This document shows positions 9,225 to 37,960 of a stretch of 64,000 bases of DNA, in pieces. The first letter of the stretch is position 1, and each line of letters begins with the position of its first letter. The position numbers and the translations under genes were made by a program. Origin of the DNA: Escherichia coli (lineage in GTDB: Bacteria > Pseudomonadota > Gammaproteobacteria > Enterobacterales > Enterobacteriaceae); NCBI RefSeq assembly GCF_030384885.1, contig NZ_CP128615.1. The stretch is one strand, 5' to 3'. Below the pieces are notes generated by a model. That model saw nothing but the letters and a program-made list of their open reading frames with translations, had not been told where the DNA came from and did no database searches.

Positions 9225-9865
9225 CTGCTACTCTAAAATAAAACAACACATGGGAGACTGTCTATTATTATTAATAACGAGTAACATTTGTTATTGCCAT
9301 TTATGGTGCTCCCGGGATCAGTTTTAACCATAAGCAAGAAAATGTTTCTTTGAACGGTTAGACATCACAAATGAGCGTCTGCCAAAAGTTGATGTAGCGC
9401 TTGCGGAATGTGTTGAGATTATATAGGGAAAGAACTACGGGGAATTATTATTGCCAGGCTTTCTCCTATGAATTTTAGCCATATCAATAGACCTTTGCTC
9501 TCAGTAACGCAAAGAGAGCATCTTTACTGATTGAAGGTAGTCAAGCGACATATGGTCACTTATTTTCTCATGTGTCGCTTGACACTATCCTGAAGTTTTT
9601 TAAGTCGATTTACGTCACCCAAAATGAAAAACTCCTTTGCATGAGTATTCATAATAATATCACAATGGTAAAGCTACATGACAGACATCTTAACTTAGTC
9701 AAGAGAGTACATAACAACTTTGCTATTACATATATTCAGGGTTGTTTGTAGTGGTTCACAAAATCAGGACACTGGAATAACCTGTTTCCACTTTTCTTCA
9801 TGTAAGCAAGGCGATAAACCACCATTGTTTGTATGAGGTCGATAAACGTTGTAATAACAATTTAT

Positions 9866-10117
9866 CTACTGCTTTATATCGCGTACTGCATGACTAAAAT
9901 CACCATAACCACCCTTCGCAAGCCATTTACTTTTAAATCTGTGAAAGACTCTTCCCATCGGCGAATTATCCAGGTAATTCCCTCTGCGACTCATACTTTG
10001 CATCGTCTCATAACGGCAGAGTAAAATTTTGTATTTATTGCTTTTATATTGAACACCTTGATCTGAATGCAACATCAGGTGGCCATCACGCGGTTGTGTT
10101 TCCTGAGCACTATGCAA
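9866..10117 (-). pseudogene. IS3-family transposase (OrfB) C-terminal fragment
   Basis: [10 protein letters not shown]...[15 protein letters not shown] integrase-core remnant; no intact element. Confidence 0.5.
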
Positions 10118-10177
10118 GTAAACGGCTCAACAGAACAGTATTGATATTTACTGAGCGGCCAGATCAACTTTTCAGGG

Positions 10178-11383
10178 TTACAGATCGCGTACCAGGTTTG
10201 CCGACCAGTCCTGGATATGTTCAATGCCGTAACACAGCCATTTTTCCAGCTCCACATTATTCAGACGGCATGTGCCGATCAGCGAGTACAGCACCGCCGC
10301 ATGTTCGCCACCACTGCCGGAACCCGCGAAGAGCCAGTTCTTCCGGCCTATGGCCACTCCCCGTAAGGCGTTCTCTGCGATGTTGTTGTCGATTTCCACC
10401 CAACCATTACTGCAGTACACGTTCCGAGCATCCCGCTACTGCAGCAGGTATGCAAACGCTTTTGCCGTATCCGAGTGACGCGCCAGTGTTTTCATCTGAG
10501 TCTGTATCCAGTCGTACAGTGACTGCATCAGTGGCGCAGGTCTGGCTTTTCTTGCCGCCAGACGCTGTTCTGCTGAACAGCCCCGGACCGCAACCTCGAT
10601 GGCATACAGTTCACTGATACGCTGCAGGGCTTCCATGGTGACGTCGGTTGGCGCTCTTGCATGCACATCGTGGATTTTTCTCCGGGCATGGGCCATACAC
10701 GCGGCTTCCGTTATTCTGCCTGATTCGTATAACGCCCGGTAGCCACCGTAAGCATCGGCTTGAAACACACCGCTGTAACCGGCCAGGTGATTTTGTGAAT
10801 GGATACCTTTCCAGCCGGACTGTACGCGAACCAGACCGCCGGGGGCATCTCCGAGCCGGCATCACGGTCATCACGGACGTAGCACCACTGCCGGACGGTT
10901 CGAGTTTTACCGGCCATCAGCACATACTGGCGCAGTATGTTATACAGCAGCTCCAGTAGTTCGCAACGGAACAGATCCAGCGTGGCACGCCTCAGCTACA
11001 CGCCCTGGCGACGGTATATTTCTGACTCGCGGTATAATGGCAGATGGTCTGCATATTTCCCGGTGACTACATGGGCCTAAAGCCCCGGTCCGGAATAACT
11101 GCTGAAGGCTCAGGTGTCTGCACGATATAGTTGCACCGGCAACAGGCCTGTTTCGGGCGTTGTGTTTCGATAACCTTAAAGGTGCAGCTGATAAGCTCTA
11201 GCAGCTCTGACACATTACACCCCAGAGGGCTGAGCTCACCACCACAGGCCGGGCAGCATTCCTCTTCCGGCCGGATGACCCTGGCTTCATAGGGAAGTGA
11301 GGCTGGTAACGATTTACGGGCTGAAGACTGGCGCAGGGAAGATGGCAGTGCCGGGTCATATTGCTCACCAGTGTTTCTGCCAT
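10178..11383 (-). pseudogene. IS66-family transposase (TnpC) remnant, multiple frame breaks, interrupted by IS3
   Basis: Adjacent ORF pieces (10178-10420, 10436-10768, 10711-10923, 11198-11383) with IS66 TnpC-like sequence in different frames. Confidence 0.6.
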
Positions 11384-11663
11384 TTCCTCCTGAAGTGCGC
11401 TGATTCGCTCCTGTGCTTCCTGTATTTACCGTTCGATTTTTGCGCGAAGTTTTTCTGAGCTTTTACCGAACTGCATGCGCTGCAGTTTTGCAACCAGCGA
11501 CTTCAGCCGGTTGGTTTCGGAAGCATAAGTCGCCACCTGCGATGAGAGCAGGCGGTTGTATTCATCCATCTGGCAGATGGTGTCCTGTTGCTTCTTCAAC
11601 CGTGCCAGCCACTGGCCTGCATCAACACCACTCTGATCCTACCCACGTAATATGGACACAGGC

Positions 11664-12479
11664 CTAAGCGAGGTTCTTGTTTTCAAATTGTTCCGGACTG
11701 AGGCCGCCACACCAACTGTGCCGCCGCCACCGATTGTAATCACATTCGATATAATTAAACACCGTTGCCCGCATTATTTCCCGGCTGATAAAGTGTTCTC
11801 CATGGATACATTCCACTTTCAGCGAATGAAAGAAGCTTTCCACGCAGGCATTATCGTAGCAGCAACCTTTTGCGCTCATACTTCCACGCAGATTATGCCG
11901 CTTCAGTTGCGCCTGATAATCTGCTGAACAGTACTGGCCTCCACGGTCCGTGTGAACGATAACGTTCCAGGGCCTCTTACGCCGCCATAGCGCCATCTGC
12001 AGGGCATCGCAGGCCAGTTGCGCCGTCATGCGTGGCGACATTGACCAGCCAATAACGGCACGTGACCACAGGTCAATGACCACTGCCAGATACAGCCAGC
12101 CTTCATCTGTACGTAAGTACGTGATGTCTCCTGCCCACTTCTGGTTCGGGCCACTGGCGTAAAAATCCTGCTCCAACAGATTTTCTGACACAGGCAGGCC
12201 GTGTGCGCGGTAGCTGACCGGGCTGAACTTCCGGGAGGCCTTTGCCCTCAGTCCCTGACAGCGCAGGCTTGCCGCCACGGTTTTTACGTTAAAGGGGTAA
12301 CCCTGAGCACGCAGTTCATCCGTCAGGCGTGGGGCACCGTAACGCTGTTTTGACCGGGTAAAAGCCGCGAGGACAACGCTGTCGCAGTGTTGGCGGAACT
12401 GCTGACGCGTGCTTATCCTTGTCCGCCGCTGACACCACGTATACCAGCCGCTGCGGGCCACCCGGAGCACGCGGCACAT
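11664..12479 (-). CDS. insF: IS3 OrfB (InsF-type DDE transposase catalytic subunit)
   Basis: 271-aa ORF with DDE integrase core (WAGDITY...HTDRGGQY...). Confidence 0.9.
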
Positions 12480-12526
12480 TGCTTTGATGCTGAACTCAGC
12501 CTGATGTTTTTCAATAAAGACTTACT

Positions 12527-12835
12527 TCATTTCAGGCGCTTCGCGAAGTATGTCGCGGCCTTTTGGAGGATAGCCAGCTCTTCATCCCGTTCTGCCAGCT
12601 GGCGTTTGAGACGTGCAATCTCGGTAGACATCTCCAGTTCACGTTCAGAAGACGTCTGCTGATTTTGCTGTTTACTGCGCCAGTTGTAGAGCTGTGATTC
12701 ATACAGGCTGAGTTCACGGGCTGCGGCAGTAACACCGATGCGTTCAGCAAGCTTCAGGGCTTCACTGCGAAATTCAGGCGAATGCTGTTTACGGGGTTTT
12801 TTACTGGTTGATACTGTTTTTGTCATGTGAGTCAC
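12527..12835 (-). CDS. insE: IS3 OrfA (InsE-type transposase DNA-binding subunit)
   Basis: 102-aa ORF, HTH and leucine-zipper region typical of IS3 OrfA. Confidence 0.9.
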   Translation of the reverse strand: MTHMTKTVSTSKKPRKQHSPEFRSEALKLAERIGVTAAARELSLYESQLYNWRSKQQNQQTSSERELEMSTEIARLKRQLAERDEELAILQKAATYFAKRLK

Positions 12836-13735
12836 CTCTGACTGAGAGTTTACTCACTTAGCCGCGTGTCCACTATTGCTGGGTAAGATCACTCTGGCGC
12901 AACGTCTGGCTGATTGCCCGGCTTCGTAATTCAATTCTTTGTACATAAACAGGACGCTTCACCTGCGCGCAATAAACGGTACGGTGAACACCGAATAAAT
13001 AACAAAGAATCCGCACTGGCCGCTTTGCCTTCAGCCGTGTGCTTAGTCCGACAAGTTTTGAGCATGCATTGAGAAAAACTCCGTTCCGTATGCCTTCATG
13101 AGTCTAATCCATTGAAATCAGCGATAGCTGTGATGAACTGTTTAGTGCTAAAACAGCACTACAATTTAACCTATACAACAATTAGGCGTACAATTTATTT
13201 TATGTTAAATTCAGTTTTATGTATCTGATTGCTTAATGTTCAAGTATTTAGATATTAGATAACACAGAATAACTCTTGTTTGGTATTTATTTTTTAGACG
13301 CTAGTCATTTAAAAAATGATAACTATAAGAATAATCACAAATTTAAACAACAATAAAAGTTATAGTTTTCAATGTCTTAATAAACCATGTTAACAATTTA
13401 TGCTTTATTCAATTCATTACATTTTCTTTAAGAATTTTCACGTTTAAAATAAAAAAATCATCACGGACAGGAGGTGTTTAGTTTATAGCTCAAAGAATTA
13501 ACATGATGATAACATCAGCGCAACCATTCTTTCTCCTTTTTGTTTTGATTTAACATAAAGGATTTTAGAATTTTAAAATCAAATAATGCTAAATAATAAA
13601 ATTGGAAAATAACACTTATTTTTCATCATAAAAATACCCATAAAATGGGGGGGGGGCAGCATTCATTATAATAAACAATATAAACTCCGACTTTGTGCTT
13701 GCCCTCAAAAAGAGGGCTTCTTTTAAGAAGATGAT

Positions 13736-14946: not shown

Positions 14947-15510
14947 ATGAGGGCTTACTGCCCTCATTATCAATTTATGTTATTTTGGATCGCATCACTG
15001 TGTTGGTTTTCTCTAATTGTGTTATGGGGGACTGGATTTTATTCATTGCTCTTTTATATCATTTCTGTATTACTGATAATCATTTTATATACTTTATATT
15101 TTATTGGAGAGAATATGTTTTCTAAAGGAAAAATAAAGGAAAGTGATTCGACCACGACAATTATTTCAAAAAATACTTCGTTTGTTGGCGATATTAGTTC
15201 TGGTGAAAAAATAATAATTCACGGAAAAATTAATGGTAATATAAATACTAACAATGGTGTGGTATTTATTGATAAAGGAGGAGTTGTTAATGGTAGGGTT
15301 TTATGTGAAAAAATGATTTTAAATGGTGAATTGTATGGTGAATGCTGTTGCTCCACGTTAGATGTTTATGAAAATGGTTTTTTACAAGGAGAAGTTAGCT
15401 ATCGATTTCTGGAGATTCGCAATGGCGGATGTATTACAGGGATTGTAAACAAGGTGACTGACGAAGTGCAAAACAATGTATCTGAGTTAGTAAAAGCGAG
15501 AGAAAGTTAA
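14947..15510 (+). CDS. Bactofilin-like protein with N-terminal transmembrane segments
   Basis: 187-aa ORF; hydrophobic N-terminus then repeated G-x-V/I-x-G beta-helix-like units ([29 protein letters not shown]...). Confidence 0.45.
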
Positions 15511-15664
15511 AAATATGAAATTCGAGAATGTTATCTTACTCCTTGTTCTTGTCATTATGTTTTATTTTGTAATAACAAATTTAATTGAAGCGAATGATTA
15601 CTACAAAGAAATACATGTATATTCCGATGTATACAAGTGATTACATTTAATGTAATGATTACGT

Positions 15665-16087
15665 GTGGATAATATGATGATTATATTTCGATATTTAATT
15701 ATTATTATTTTAAGCGTATACATGACAGGGTGTACTAATAATAATTTAAAGAAAGAAGATATCCCCGAAGATATGTTCGCAATAATTTATGGTTCGGATA
15801 GCATAAAAAAATATGAACACGGACAGATGGAGCTTACAAAAAATATCAACAGTGGATGTATTGAAGCCTTGGTTTTTTTAAGTGAAGAGGACCCCGAGAA
15901 ATATAGCGATTATATAAATGATTATCATAAAATAGCAGAGGGGTATCGTTTTCTTGATGATAACAGAACATTCATGAATAAAGATTCAATTGAATTATTG
16001 GTAAGAGGGTTAAATGTTAAAAAGGATGTCCTCTGCTCAAGAGTAAAGTTTGAAAGCTTTCAGCACCTTAAAAACAAATTCCAATAA
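15665..16087 (+). CDS. Putative lipoprotein (paralog of 14527-14940)
   Basis: Lipobox MTGC; shared C-terminal MNKDSIELL...VLCSRV motif. Confidence 0.5.
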   Translation: MDNMMIIFRYLIIIILSVYMTGCTNNNLKKEDIPEDMFAIIYGSDSIKKYEHGQMELTKNINSGCIEALVFLSEEDPEKYSDYINDYHKIAEGYRFLDDNRTFMNKDSIELLVRGLNVKKDVLCSRVKFESFQHLKNKFQ

Positions 16088-16184
16088 TAGAAAAAACAAA
16101 TGCCAAGGTAATGCAATTCAGTTATTGCAGAGAATATACTTTATCTATTATCCTCACATTAGATGGGGATGATTAATATATTTC

Positions 16185-17258
16185 ATGAGACTCTTTATGA
16201 ATACTATAAAAATAAAGCTAAACCTAATTGATTATGATTCAATTGTAAATATTGAACTTCCCTGTCTTCTATCTGAAATAGAGATAGAGTTATTATCTCA
16301 ATTACTGAAGGGGTATTCTGTAAATGAGATTTCCAAGCGAAGAAACAGAAGTATCAAAACAGTCTCGTGCCAAAAAATGAAATTATATAAAAAACTTAAC
16401 GTAAAAAGCGATCTGACTTTATGGCGAGATGTTTTTTTAAGATTTAAAGCCTACCTACAACCTAAAAATATCATCTGTGATAATTTTAATAGCTCTGTTT
16501 TACCAGTTGTTTCATCTAAAGGGGAGAGTATGGCGCACTACAACATATATTACCAACCGATCTATAACGCAAAAAATGGAAATATTGCTGGATGTGATGT
16601 TACTATTGCGTTAAAAAATTCAGATGGTAGTGCTTTTGCACTAGATTCTGACAGAATTAATTATAACCCCAATGATAACAAAGTATCTTATTTGTTTGGA
16701 CATATCAACAAACTATTCTCACCGATTAAAAATAATCTTCCGCATGGTTTTTTTATTACGATAAACATTAATCCTGAAGATATTCTTACCTGTGATATCG
16801 AAAGGGAGTGTTTACATTTTATTAAAGTTTTCGGAACGGAACGGATAAGACTTGTCTTGCAGTTTTCAACTAAAGAAGAACTTTACATAATAAGAAGATA
16901 CCAGTCTTCTTTAAGACGTATCAGAAATAATAATGTTTATTTATCGCTTAATGATTTCGGTATGGGATATGCTGAGCTTTCACACTTGCAAAACATACCT
17001 TTCTCCTATGTAAACCTACATAAAACAATGTTCCATGATATAGAAAGCAATAGTTTAACAGATATAATAGCAACTACAATTATTGATTTATCAAAACAAC
17101 TGCATATAGATGTTATTGCTGATGGTATAGAAACGAAGAAACAGGCAGGTTATATGATTGAAAGAGGAGTTAAATATTTAAAAGGCATTGCATTATCATC
17201 ACCGCTACCTGCAGATGCATTTGTACGAAAATTGTTAGCTTCATTAAAACAAGTCTAA
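16185..17258 (+). CDS. LuxR-type HTH / EAL-domain protein (PdeL-like architecture, EAL motifs possibly degenerate)
   Basis: 357-aa ORF; N-terminal LuxR HTH (ELLSQLLKGYSVNEISKRRNRSIKTVSCQKMKLYKKLNV); C-terminal EAL-like domain (YQPIYNAKNGNIAGCDV, NDFGMGYAELSHL). Confidence 0.6.
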   Translation: MRLFMNTIKIKLNLIDYDSIVNIELPCLLSEIEIELLSQLLKGYSVNEISKRRNRSIKTVSCQKMKLYKKLNVKSDLTLWRDVFLRFKAYLQPKNIICDNFNSSVLPVVSSKGESMAHYNIYYQPIYNAKNGNIAGCDVTIALKNSDGSAFALDSDRINYNPNDNKVSYLFGHINKLFSPIKNNLPHGFFITININPEDILTCDIERECLHFIKVFGTERIRLVLQFSTKEELYIIRRYQSSLRRIRNNNVYLSLNDFGMGYAELSHLQNIPFSYVNLHKTMFHDIESNSLTDIIATTIIDLSKQLHIDVIADGIETKKQAGYMIERGVKYLKGIALSSPLPADAFVRKLLASLKQV

Positions 17259-34861: not shown

Positions 34862-35092
34862 ATGCGCACAGTTTCGATATTTAAAAACGGCAATAACCGC
34901 GCCATCCGTCTGCCCCGGGACCTGGATTTTGATGGCGTCAGCGAGCTGGAGATCGTCCGGGAAGGGGACAGCATCATTCTGCGTCCCGTCCGGCCGACCT
35001 GGGGCTCGTTCGCGCAGCTGGACAGGGCCGATCCGGACTTTATGGCGGAGCGTGAGGATGTGGTCAGCGATGAAGGACGCTTTGAGCCATGA
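34862..35092 (+). CDS. vapB: VapB antitoxin, copy 2 (diverged paralog)
   Basis: 76-aa ORF MRTVSIFKNGNNRAIRLPRDLDFDG...; own CATCTGCATAT operator repeats upstream (about 34700-34850). Confidence 0.85.
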   Translation: MRTVSIFKNGNNRAIRLPRDLDFDGVSELEIVREGDSIILRPVRPTWGSFAQLDRADPDFMAEREDVVSDEGRFEP

Positions 35093-35505
35093 AGAAAACC
35101 TGGATGCTCGACACCAACATCTGCTCGTTCATCATGCGCGAGCAGCCGGCAGCGGTGCTGAAGCGCCTGGAGCAGGCGGTGCTGCGCGGTGATCGCATTG
35201 TGGTCTCGGCCGTGACGTATGCCGAGATGCGCTTCGGCGCCACCGGCCCGAAGGCCTCGCCGCGCCATATTCAGCTGGTCGACGCGTTCTGCGCGCGCCT
35301 CGATGCCGTCCTGCCCTGGGACCGCGCCGCGGTGGACGCCACGACGGACATCCGGGTGGCGCTGCGCCTAGCCGGGACGCCGATCGGCCCGAATGACACG
35401 GCCATTGCCGGGCACGCCATCGCGGCGGGCGCCATCCTGGTGACGAACAATGTGAGAGAGTTTGCGCGGGTCCCGGGCCTGGTGCTGGAAGACTGGGTGA
35501 AATAA
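35089..35505 (+). CDS. vapC: VapC PIN-domain toxin, copy 2
   Basis: 138-aa ORF, clear paralog of copy 1. Confidence 0.85.
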   Translation: MKKTWMLDTNICSFIMREQPAAVLKRLEQAVLRGDRIVVSAVTYAEMRFGATGPKASPRHIQLVDAFCARLDAVLPWDRAAVDATTDIRVALRLAGTPIGPNDTAIAGHAIAAGAILVTNNVREFARVPGLVLEDWVK

Positions 35506-35708: not shown

Positions 35709-35993
35709 ATGGGCACATCACGTTTTACCCCTGAATTTAAGGAAGAGGCCGTCCGCCAGATCACCGAGCGGGGCTATTCTATTGCTGAAGTATCTGAACG
35801 GCTCGGCGTGTCGGCGCACAGCCTATATAAATGGCTCCGGGCTGTTAAGCCTGACAACAGTGGACAGCAGGCACAGGATTTACTGGATGCCAGAACAGAA
35901 ATTCTCAGGCTGAAAGCACAGCTTAAACGCACTGAGGAAGAGCGGGATATTCTGAAAAAGGCAGCGCGGTACTTTGCAAGGGAGCCCGACTGA
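35709..35993 (+). CDS. IS3-family OrfA
   Basis: 94-aa HTH protein MGTSRFTPEFKEEAVRQITERGYSIAEVSERLGVS... Confidence 0.7.
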   Translation: MGTSRFTPEFKEEAVRQITERGYSIAEVSERLGVSAHSLYKWLRAVKPDNSGQQAQDLLDARTEILRLKAQLKRTEEERDILKKAARYFAREPD

Positions 35994-36040
35994 AGTATCG
36001 CTTTATCAACGATCACCGTGAAATCTGGTCGATCGTTACA

Positions 36041-36566
36041 ATGTGTCGGGTCCTTAAGGTTGCCCGTGCCGGATTTTATGTCTGGCTCCATAACCCTGTA
36101 TCTGCCGGAGAAAAGGATAACCAGCGACTGCTGGAACTCATCCGCGACTCCTATACGCTGAGTGGTGGAGTTTACGGTTATCGCAGGGTTCATGGCGATC
36201 TTCGCGAAATTGGCGAAGTGTGCAGCAGAAACCGGGTTGCCAAAATCATGAGGAAAAACAGGATTCAGGCTATACATGGTTATAAAGTGCCACGCGGGAG
36301 CCGGGGACGACCGTCACTGATAGCGCCTAATCACGTGCGGCGTGAATTTACTGTAGTGAAGCCCAATCAGGTGTGGGTCACCGACATCACCTACATCCGC
36401 ACCTGGCAGGGCTGGCTGTACCTGGCAGTGGTTATCGATCTTTTTGCCCGTAATGTGGTGGGCTGGTCGATGAAGCCGACACTGTCGCGCGAGCTGGCAC
36501 TGGATGCGCTGCTGATGGCGGTCTGGCGACGTAAACCTGAAGAAAACGTCATTGTGCACAGCGATA
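36041..36566 (+). pseudogene. IS3-family OrfB, N-terminal part (interrupted after ...NVIVHSD)
   Basis: DDE core present up to HSD, then unrelated sequence. Confidence 0.6.
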
Positions 36567-37960
36567 GTAATAATGCCGATGTCAGTCTTTACCACCACTT
36601 AGTTTGCCGTTTAACCAGATTGGTGTGATTACTGATGCAGTGAAGACCTTCCCGCATCCTGACTCACACAGCGATCGACCTTTTGTGTCCTGCCCTGGAC
36701 CCGTCGGTTGCCGGAAGCGCCTTCATGCGAGGCATCTCCTCACCGATGCGCGTGACTCAAGAAGGGCCTGACGGCTTGTCTCGTTACTGTCCTGTCCGGG
36801 TTATCTGTCTGGAGATTCAACTCTGTTTCCTCACAGGAGCTCTGTCATGGTTGATAAAGTTACCGAAGCTGCCGTTGTGGGTGGCGTGGATACACATAAA
36901 GATTTGCACGTTGCCGCTGTCGTAGATCAGAACAATAAAGTCCTTGGGACTCAGTATTTCTCCACAACACGACAAGGTTACCGGCAGATGCTGGCATGGA
37001 TGACCTCGTTTGGGACATTAAAGCGAATTGGTGTTGAGTGCACAGGTACCTATGGTTCCGGTTTGCTTCGTTATTTTCAGAACGCCGGGTTAGAAGTTCT
37101 TGAGGTGACTGCTCCAGACCGGATGGAGCGACGCAAACGGGGTAAAAGTGACACAATTGATGCTGAATGTGCCGCTCATGCAGCATTCTCAGGCATCAGG
37201 ACAGTTACTCCCAAAACGCGTGATGGCATGATTGAGTCCCTGCGGGTATTAAAAACTTGCCGAAAAACAGCAATATCAGCCCGCAGAGTCGCTCTCCAGA
37301 TTATCCATTCAAATATTATCTCTGCCCCGGATGAATTACGTGAACAGCTCAGAAATATGACGCGCATGCAGCTCATCAGGACCCTGGGTTCCTGGAGACC
37401 TGATGCCAGTGAATACCGCAATGTAACCAACGTTTATCGCATTTCATTAAAGTCCCTTGCCCGACGCTATCTCGAGTTACATGACGAAATCGCTGATCTG
37501 GATGTCATGATTGCGGCAATTGTCGACGAGTTGGCACCTGAGCTGATTAAACGTAATGCTATCGGATACGAAAGCGCTTCACAGTTGCTGATCACTGCCG
37601 GAGACAATCCTCAACGGTTAAGATCAGAATCAGGATTTGCGGCACTGTGTGGTGTCAGCCCGGTCCCCGTTTCTTCTGGAAAAACGAACCGTTACCGACT
37701 TAATCGTGGTGGAGATCGTGCTGCAAATAGTGCACTTCACATCATCGCCATCGGACGCTTACGAACTGACGCAAAAACAAAGGAATATGTCGCCAGGCGT
37801 GTAGCCGAAGGACATACAAAAATGGAAGCGATACGCTGTCTAAAGCGATATATCTCCCGCGAAGTTTACACGTTACTGCGCAATCAAAACAGGCGGATCA
37901 ACAGTATCCCGATAACAGCTTGACTCTTAGAAGGGCGTCCAGGGCAGTCAGTATGGCAGT
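36567..37960 (+). mobile_element. IS110-family insertion sequence (boundaries approximate)
   Basis: Insert splitting the IS3-family orfB; carries an IS110-type transposase; no terminal inverted repeats, as expected for the family. Confidence 0.55.
36847..37923 (+). CDS. IS110-family transposase
   Basis: 358-aa ORF with N-terminal VGGVDTHKDLHVAAV motif. Confidence 0.8.
   Translation: MVDKVTEAAVVGGVDTHKDLHVAAVVDQNNKVLGTQYFSTTRQGYRQMLAWMTSFGTLKRIGVECTGTYGSGLLRYFQNAGLEVLEVTAPDRMERRKRGKSDTIDAECAAHAAFSGIRTVTPKTRDGMIESLRVLKTCRKTAISARRVALQIIHSNIISAPDELREQLRNMTRMQLIRTLGSWRPDASEYRNVTNVYRISLKSLARRYLELHDEIADLDVMIAAIVDELAPELIKRNAIGYESASQLLITAGDNPQRLRSESGFAALCGVSPVPVSSGKTNRYRLNRGGDRAANSALHIIAIGRLRTDAKTKEYVARRVAEGHTKMEAIRCLKRYISREVYTLLRNQNRRINSIPITA

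Follow-up and report, generated by a model that had tools for sequence, protein, structure and literature searches.

Organization of the locus

The locus consists of a full-length IS3 flanked on both sides by decayed pieces of an ISKpn37-like element of the IS3 family, next to a remnant of an IS66-family element related to IS679 and ISCro1 (Table 1). The cluster is bordered by short 5' stubs from two ISNCY-family elements. The window, a 64,000-nucleotide stretch of Escherichia coli DNA, is an F-like IncFIA/FIB/FIC plasmid with 99.6% identity to plasmid F in the IS3 region. The GC content of the cluster is 53–54%, against 30–46% at 2–10 kb and 30–38% at 13–18 kb. This profile and the decayed remnants support the original prediction of an old cluster of dead insertion sequences between two AT-rich blocks. 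It seems very likely (roughly 0.88) that the region is an IS cluster of an F-type plasmid recording nested insertions and deletions.

The sequences bordering the cluster on its two sides do not match each other, and no 3-bp duplication was found around the ISKpn37-like element or around the whole cluster. No PLSDB record joins the AT-rich flanks directly without the IS cluster at ≥80% coverage; among the inspected PLSDB matches, plasmids bearing the flanks carry both of them plus the cluster. The prediction that the cluster may have been where these blocks entered gains no support from this in either direction.

Table 1. Features of the IS cluster, in window coordinates
Feature	Position	Strand	Remarks
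ISNCY 5' stub B	9560-9730	minus	Left-end-like TGTAATAGCAAAGTTG from 9730 and decayed transposase start
ISKpn37-like right part (ISKpn37 nt 883-1253)	9747-10117	minus	orfB C-terminus and right terminal repeat
IS66-family (IS679/ISCro1-like) remnant	10118-11609	minus	tnpC nt 35 to end and right terminal repeat
IS2 site of plasmid F inside tnpC remnant	10323-10327		Unoccupied in the window
ISKpn37-like orfB segment (~nt 582-614)	11601-11633	minus	PGAP ISKpn37-family pseudogene in pECC-1470_100
Deletion junction, ISKpn37-like nt 614 / IS66 tnpC nt 35	11601-11609		Homologies overlap, shared GGCAC
CTC, left copy of IS3 target-site duplication	11631-11633
IS3	11634-12891 (1258 bp)	minus	Full-length matches, ends, ORFs, domains; site shared with F
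IS3 orfB frame	12530-11664	minus	rve, rve_2, HTH_21; NCBIfam transpos_IS3, 333 bits
TAA nonsense codon, orfB codon 3	12522-12524	minus	TAT in F and in the compared chromosomal copy
IS3 orfA	12826-12527	minus	99 aa, HTH_Tnp_1 match
IS3 A4G slippery motif	12564-12560	minus	Upstream of the TAA codon
CTC, right copy of IS3 target-site duplication	12892-12894
ISKpn37-like segment (~nt 379-581)	12895-13052	minus	45-bp internal deletion; PGAP 'IS3 family transposase, incomplete'
ISKpn37-like orfA start (nt 67-93)	13043-13069	minus	25/27 match, overlapping alignment blocks
ISNCY 5' stub A	13067-13177	minus	Left-end-like from 13177; ATG at 13099, 11 codons MKAYGTEFFSM

IS3 and its insertion site

The IS3 is 99.7–99.8% identical over positions 1–1258 to copies in thousands of E. 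coli genomes, many of them chromosomal, in unrelated contexts; in this search a query coverage of 80% or more was reached by 4,517 records. Its termini (TGATCTTACCCAGC... and ...GTGGGTAGGATCA) begin with TG and end with CA, and form imperfect inverted repeats with complementary bases at ~28 of the first 39 positions. They are identical in three inspected chromosomal copies. An element of 1258 bp with perfect ends, as had been predicted, is thereby confirmed at 11634-12891, with consensus termini. The orfB frame lies at -1 relative to orfA, and the AnG slippery motif characteristic of the IS3 group is present. Members of the IS3 family produce OrfAB by -1 frameshifting and transpose through a circular intermediate, with 3-bp staggered cleavage of the target. 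The biology of OrfAB in this family is treated in PMC5771124.

Both flanks of the element read CTC, and two 3-bp flanks are identical by chance at a rate of ~1/64. In pECC-1470_100 (NZ_CP010345.1) the site is empty and reads ...CACCACTC joined directly to TGGCGCAACG..., with a single CTC. The window sequence with IS3 deleted is matched at this junction full-length and in one piece in 29 PLSDB plasmids (99.0–99.8% identity) and in 17 RefSeq E. coli records, which are plasmids. Filled and empty sites differ only by IS3 and one additional CTC in the former. The CTC duplication is real because the empty-site plasmids show a single CTC. This is the decisive evidence, and it upholds the claim of a true transposition event. 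Elsewhere, a separate IS3 insertion in lpfA is flanked by a 3-bp duplication, CTG, and two of three other inspected IS3 copies, located at rearrangement points, have no duplication.

E. coli can lose IS3-family elements by precise excision (bioRxiv 10.1101/2023.06.07.543989), and the IS3-free plasmids might accordingly be revertants rather than representatives of the ancestral state. This is very unlikely, however, as the empty-site plasmids are many and diverse (the 29 records above), and the single example examined has a nearby SNP relative to the filled lineage, which fits separate lineages. The insertion and the CTC duplication stand even if the empty-site plasmids arose by excision.

The IS66-family remnant

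The IS66-family remnant is 86% identical to IS679 overall (blastn) and 87–92% identical in ungapped blocks; at the DNA level it is ~86–89% identical to the tnpC genes of IS679 and ISCro1. Six deletions are present in tnpC (1, 13, 8, 1, 51 and 1 bp), five of which shift the frame while the 51-bp one is in-frame, and there are at least four premature stops. Fragments of the open reading frame match the Pfam DDE_Tnp_IS66 and NCBIfam transpos_IS66 models (PF03050, PF13817, PF13007, NF033517). The gene is dead, and the predicted IS66-family transposase remnants with several frame breaks are accounted for by these deletions, stops and domain matches. Homology to IS679 does not extend beyond tnpC nt 35, so that tnpA, tnpB and the left end are absent. 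The right terminus is retained at 10118 (GTAAACGGCTC, compared with GTAAGCGGCTC in IS679), while the left terminus has been deleted. The reference IS679 has the same terminus and an 8-bp duplication, AGACAAAT.

The remnant also contains the site at which plasmid F carries an IS2. The alignment of F to the window breaks at 10322-10327, where F has ~1336 extra bp annotated as IS2. The alignment blocks overlap by 6 bp, and the 5-bp bounds given in Table 1 rest on an assumed length and duplication for this IS2, which we take to be 1331 bp plus 5 bp.

The element interrupted by IS3

The sequence on both sides of IS3 is ISKpn37-like. The 24 bp to its left and the segment at 12895-13052 match ISKpn37 nt 379-614 at ~92%, and in pECC-1470_100 PGAP labels both flanks as ISKpn37-family and the middle as IS66 tnpC. 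The original prediction had placed IS3 within IS66-family remnants, but IS66 homology ends at 11609, 24 bp short of IS3. An insertion into the IS66-family element, with its remnants on both sides, would agree with the close proximity of tnpC on one side and with a continuous open reading frame that can be read through the empty site into tnpC. Beyond IS3, however, nothing matches IS679 tnpC, and a blastn search (word size 7) to the right of IS3 found no homology to tnpA or tnpB. Together with the ISKpn37-like character of both flanks, on which the PGAP annotation agrees, this makes an IS66-family host for IS3 highly improbable.

Three collinear pieces of the ISKpn37-like element (nt 67-93, 379-614 and 883-1253) occur on the same strand at 89–93% identity to the reference, which is 1253 bp long and has a GGC duplication. 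The right part is 88.9% identical to ISKpn37 of K. pneumoniae pNDM_3214 (ungapped, over 371 bp), matches NCBIfam transpos_IS3 (E=3.5e-18) and carries a PGAP annotation in F128 and pECC-1470_100. Its terminal repeat ends ...CCACTACA at 9747, and the C-terminal portion of orfB contains an internal stop at 9863-9865. An IS3-family fragment had been noted at 9866-10117; it is indeed present, but it extends to 9747 and is not merely adjacent to the other remnants. It is the other half of the element interrupted by IS3, most likely divided when the IS66-family element inserted. A ~285-bp deletion between GTCGGACTAA-like repeats has brought the start of orfA up against nt 379. The left terminal repeat is absent, and an ISNCY 5' stub stands in place of nt 1-66.

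The junction between ISKpn37-like nt 614 and tnpC nt 35 was compared base by base with ISKpn37 and IS679, and is also present in IS3-free plasmids. IS3 lies very near this junction, and the two copies at rearrangement points mentioned above have no duplication, both of which would be compatible with a deletion adjacent to and mediated by IS3 that produced the junction, the CTC match being coincidental. The presence of the same junction in the 29 PLSDB plasmids without IS3 at this position contradicts such an origin, and we regard its probability as close to nil.

ISNCY-family stubs

The two ISNCY stubs were placed by four-way alignment, and the homology is limited to 5' stubs, the transposase body being absent. 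Over 76 bp, stub A shares 87% identity with the 5' end of an ISNCY transposase gene from Klebsiella, and at an ATG overlap it is fused to the start of the ISKpn37-like orfA. Stub B has an open reading frame running from 9652 down to ~9562 (MNTHAKEFFILGDVNRLKKLQD...) and, in several hundred plasmids, matches the 5' ends of genes annotated as ISNCY transposases, at 72–77% DNA identity over ~145 bp. Its match at 9587-9730 was considered as the 3' end of an outermost split element, and is actually a second, more divergent 5' end. The TGTAGTG at 13163 was likewise considered as the ISKpn37 left repeat; sequence beyond the 7-mer mismatches, and aligns instead with ISNCY left ends.

Proposed history of the cluster

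These features are consistent with a series of nested events. An ISKpn37-like element would first have occupied a position between the two AT-rich blocks. An IS679/ISCro1-like element would then have inserted into its orfB at ~nt 882/883, as suggested by the intact IS66 right terminus, which abuts ISKpn37 sequence exactly at the last base of the element. A deletion, visible in its junction and probably mediated by microhomology, would have taken out 268 bp of ISKpn37 sequence and, from the IS66-family element, the left end, tnpA, tnpB and tnpC nt 1-34. Both elements would then have been killed by additional small deletions and by point mutations, with an ISNCY stub replacing the ISKpn37 left end, although these small deletions and the ISNCY junction may have arisen in another order relative to the remaining steps. 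Comparison with the empty sites shows that IS3 subsequently entered the ISKpn37-like remnant by ordinary IS3-family transposition, at a point 24 bp away from the IS66 junction, with duplication of CTC. This insertion would have taken place in a common ancestor of F and the studied plasmid, with F gaining IS2 in the tnpC remnant later. The TAT to TAA change at orfB codon 3 arose in the sub-lineage of the studied plasmid.

Alternatively, the ISKpn37-like pieces may come from separate elements or have been joined by recombination, with no transposition of the IS66-family element into an ISKpn37-like one. Because the IS66-family remnant ends on its left in a deletion, an 8-bp duplication cannot be demonstrated, and the 268 bp of ISKpn37 sequence are absent from between the pieces. 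A search of PLSDB for an intermediate, with the hypothetical undeleted left junction (ISKpn37 nt 733-890 plus the IS679 left end), gave no records. Yet the pieces share strand and collinear order and are similarly diverged from ISKpn37 (89–92%), and the IS66 right terminus meets ISKpn37 sequence at its exact last base. A separate origin of the pieces therefore appears unlikely, and nested insertion is preferred.

A nonsense codon in orfB

The third codon of orfB in this IS3 is TAA. The IS3 had been described as intact, which holds for its length and ends but not for its function. The TAA is 3' of both the slippery site and the orfA stop, so that OrfB and the OrfAB fusion are both truncated. 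The open OrfAB frame of an autonomous element is lacking; assignment to the IS3 family is unaffected. The variant is absent from 4,712 RefSeq E. coli records and occurs in five PLSDB plasmids. Four of these were identified, and their sample descriptions look alike, which limits the independence of the assemblies.

From its sequence, this copy is predicted to encode OrfA only and should be unable to transpose unaided. It might nevertheless be mobilised in trans, or act as a patch of homology for recombination with IS3 copies in the chromosome, as happens when Hfr strains and F-primes form. OrfA is an inhibitor of transposition in the IS3 group. One may speculate that an IS3 bearing the nonsense codon, and making OrfA without transposase, is retained as a trans-acting damper of host IS3 as well as a homology patch, although we consider this quite improbable. 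The IS3 of F, along with IS2 and Tn1000, provides homology for the formation of Hfr strains and F-primes (PMC11148124).

The region has little importance past correct annotation, and the NCBI pipeline already labels the surrounding pseudogenes. What is gained is a corrected identity for the dead element that IS3 interrupts and a reconstructed order of nesting: ISKpn37-like element, IS66-family element, deletion, IS3, and IS2 in F. The probable immobility of the IS3 copy on its own would be relevant only to work that relies on the number or activity of IS3 copies on such plasmids. Among E. coli associated with cattle, F-type plasmids in which these sites hold neither IS3 nor IS2 are common.

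Comparison with known elements and plasmids

The IS3 copy is the already known, classical one of plasmid F. We take it to be the IS3 placed near 13.7–15.0 F on the heteroduplex map. In F (NC_002483.1, ~15093-16350) the element shares the site, the orientation, the CCACTC and CTCTGG flanks and the same IS remnants. The two copies differ by four SNPs in 1258 bp, one of which creates the stop at orfB codon 3 in the window. A single IS3 is present in the window and its IS2 site is vacant, while F has a second IS3 as well as the IS2 within the tnpC remnant.

The plasmids pECC-1470_100 and p1303_109 (NZ_CP009167.1), from bovine mastitis E. coli (PMC4384141), are F-type plasmids with the empty site, a single CTC and no IS3. 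They share the order of ISKpn37-like sequence, IS66 tnpC and ISKpn37-like sequence, as well as the flanking genes, and their junction is 99.3–99.8% identical. Relative to IS679 and ISCro1, only the 3' 1.5 kb is kept in the window, ending at the same element terminus. Relative to ISKpn37, the window element is without nt 1-66, ~94-378, a 45-bp segment and nt 615-882 and, unlike ISKpn37, is interrupted by the IS66 remnant and IS3.

The IS3 insertion and its empty site

Positions 1–1258 of the IS3 element match copies in thousands of E. coli records at 99.7–99.8% identity, with unrelated neighbouring genes, and its termini are exactly those of all three chromosomal copies inspected. Both flanks read CTC, an agreement between two 3-bp flanks expected by chance in ~1 of 64 cases. 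When IS3 and one CTC were deleted in silico, the resulting junction was found uninterrupted, with 99.0–99.8% identity, in 29 PLSDB plasmids and in 17 RefSeq complete E. coli records. In the F-type plasmid pECC-1470_100 (NZ_CP010345.1) the empty site is ...CACCACTC/TGGCGCAACG..., with CTC present once. These single-CTC sites establish the true transposition with CTC duplication claimed in the original prediction, and the comparison with IS3-free plasmids proposed there was decisive. An independent IS3 copy in lpfA has a 3-bp CTG duplication; two further copies inspected, each between unrelated genes, have none. The fertility plasmid F (NC_002483.1) carries IS3 in the identical site with identical flanks, so the insertion is older than the split between F and the window plasmid. 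A single A/C difference from pECC-1470_100, the one IS3-free plasmid compared, was seen within the 400-bp junction at window 11500, and may mark the division between IS3-bearing and IS3-free lineages.

Coordinates of features in and around the insertion sequence cluster
Feature	Window position	Strand	Remarks
IS3	11634–12891	minus	exactly 1258 bp; ends TGATCTTACCCAGC... and ...GTGGGTAGGATCA
CTC flanks of IS3	11631–11633 and 12892–12894		
TAT>TAA, IS3 orfB codon 3	12522–12524	minus	
IS2 site of F within tnpC remnant	10323–10327		unoccupied in the window
ISNCY-family 5' stub A	13177–13067	minus	left-end-like sequence and 11 codons; fused to the ISKpn37-like part at an ATG overlap
ISNCY-family 5' stub B	9730 to ~9560	minus	more divergent; just outside the ISKpn37 right end

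The interrupted element

IS3 had been placed inside the IS66-family remnant, but IS66-family (IS679/ISCro1) homology is confined to 10118–11609, with no resemblance to tnpC, tnpB or tnpA to the right of IS3. The remnant runs from the right terminus of the element (GTAAACGGCTC at 10118) to tnpC nt 35, and is 86% identical to IS679/ISCro1 overall (blastn; 87–92% in ungapped blocks). Its terminus is identical to that of IS679 at a reference locus, where an 8-bp duplication flanks the 2,704-bp element. The DNA on both sides of IS3 instead resembles ISKpn37, an IS3-family element that in K. pneumoniae pNDM_3214 measures 1253 bp and has a GGC duplication. Positions 11601–11633 and 12895–13052 correspond to ISKpn37 nt 379–614 minus 45 bp, and 13043–13069 to the start of its orfA (nt 67–93). 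The interrupted element is therefore the ISKpn37-like remnant, in which IS3 sits at ~nt 582–584; 24 bp separate it from the IS66 junction. The IS3-family fragment reported at 9866–10117 is real, but is the downstream half of this same split element rather than a separate neighbour: 9747–10117 matches ISKpn37 nt 883–1253, including the right terminal repeat (88.9%, ungapped), and the apparent start at 9866 is merely an internal stop codon. NCBI annotation of F128 and pECC-1470_100 is consistent with this, giving in order an ISKpn37-family pseudogene, an IS66 tnpC pseudogene and a second ISKpn37-family pseudogene.

Decay of the older elements

At 10117/10118 the final base of the IS66 right end meets ISKpn37 nt 883 cleanly, which looks like a transposition junction. 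At 11601–11609, ISKpn37 nt 614 is fused to tnpC nt 35 through a common GGCAC. This junction indicates a deletion in which 268 bp of ISKpn37 were lost along with tnpA, tnpB, the beginning of tnpC and the left end of the IS66 element. It is also present in IS3-free plasmids and so was not created by IS3; the predicted undeleted left junction is retained in no PLSDB plasmid. The several frame breaks noted in the transposase remnants are borne out in tnpC by six deletions (1, 13, 8, 1, 51 and 1 bp) together with premature stop codons at positions 11428, 11079, 10998 and 10438.

The ISKpn37-like element lacks its first 66 nt, replaced by an ISNCY-family 5' stub. As such stubs lie beyond both of its ends, the cluster extends over ~9560–13177 and comprises IS3 and what remains of four or more other IS insertions. 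One stub is 87% identical to ISNCY elements (Klebsiella copies), the other 72–77%. Both consist of left-end-like sequence and the first transposase codons, with only scattered conserved blocks in common.

A further IS3-family element lies at 35709–36628 and 36847–37923 (families here assigned by eye), with an orfA-like ORF of 94 aa, an orfB-like ORF stopping prematurely after ~195 aa, and 73% identity to IS3 over 155 bp. It seems shortened beside a 358-aa ORF resembling IS110-family transposases. A PIN/VapC-like toxin ORF is immediately upstream (35089–35505, also by eye).

Coding capacity of IS3

The description of IS3 as intact holds for its length and ends, but not for its coding capacity. 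The element retains an open orfA (12826–12527, 99 aa) and the A4G slippery motif (12564–12560), but its orfB frame at 12530–12522 reads ATG AAG TAA, versus ATG AAG TAT in F and one chromosomal copy. Since TAA lies downstream of the slippery motif and of the orfA stop, OrfB ends after two residues and the OrfAB fusion is cut before the catalytic domain; the copy is thus predicted to be non-autonomous. The TAA allele occurs in five PLSDB plasmids, of which the four listed come from pooled farm-soil or cattle-faeces samples, and at none of 13,531 places in 4,712 matching RefSeq E. coli records. No IS3 transposase CDS is given for those four in PLSDB, which leaves out pseudogenes; this would fit annotation of the TAA copies as pseudogenes.

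Plasmid setting

The 5 kb around the cluster is 99.5–99.9% identical to E. coli F-type IncFIA/FIB/FIC plasmids, with pRHB21-C20_2 (CP057595.1) the top match. Collinearity with this plasmid ends at ~20476, past which it carries RelE/ParE, RepFIC, hok, intact finO and traX/traI. With the match lost there and no FinO homologue in the entire window (tblastn), the downstream backbone is differently arranged. GC content is 30–46% at 2–10 kb, 53–54% at 10–13 kb and 30–38% at 13–18 kb, so the description of two AT-rich blocks separated by the IS cluster is accurate. Direct joining of both AT-rich flanks was found in no PLSDB plasmid. The original prediction also put the cluster forward as a possible entry point for these blocks.

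Comparison with F

Over these 5 kb F is 99.6% identical to the window plasmid, the main difference being an additional IS2 in F, which entered the tnpC remnant later. The exact 5-bp bounds of its site presuppose an IS2 of 1331 bp with a 5-bp duplication. Most related farm-derived plasmids likewise lack IS2 there and, with the window, show the F backbone as it was before IS2 arrived. The original observation is real, with its nesting host and the term 'intact' requiring correction. The F-type plasmids pECC-1470_100 and p1303_109, without this IS3, have been described in bovine mastitis strains as F plasmids (PMC4384141). The IS3 of the window is the F copy near IS2; F has a second copy, reported to interrupt finO (PMC11148124), whereas the window has only one. 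Formation of Hfr strains and F-primes classically relies on the IS3, IS2 and Tn1000 of F as homology patches (PMC11148124). Already known, the feature conforms throughout to standard IS biology.
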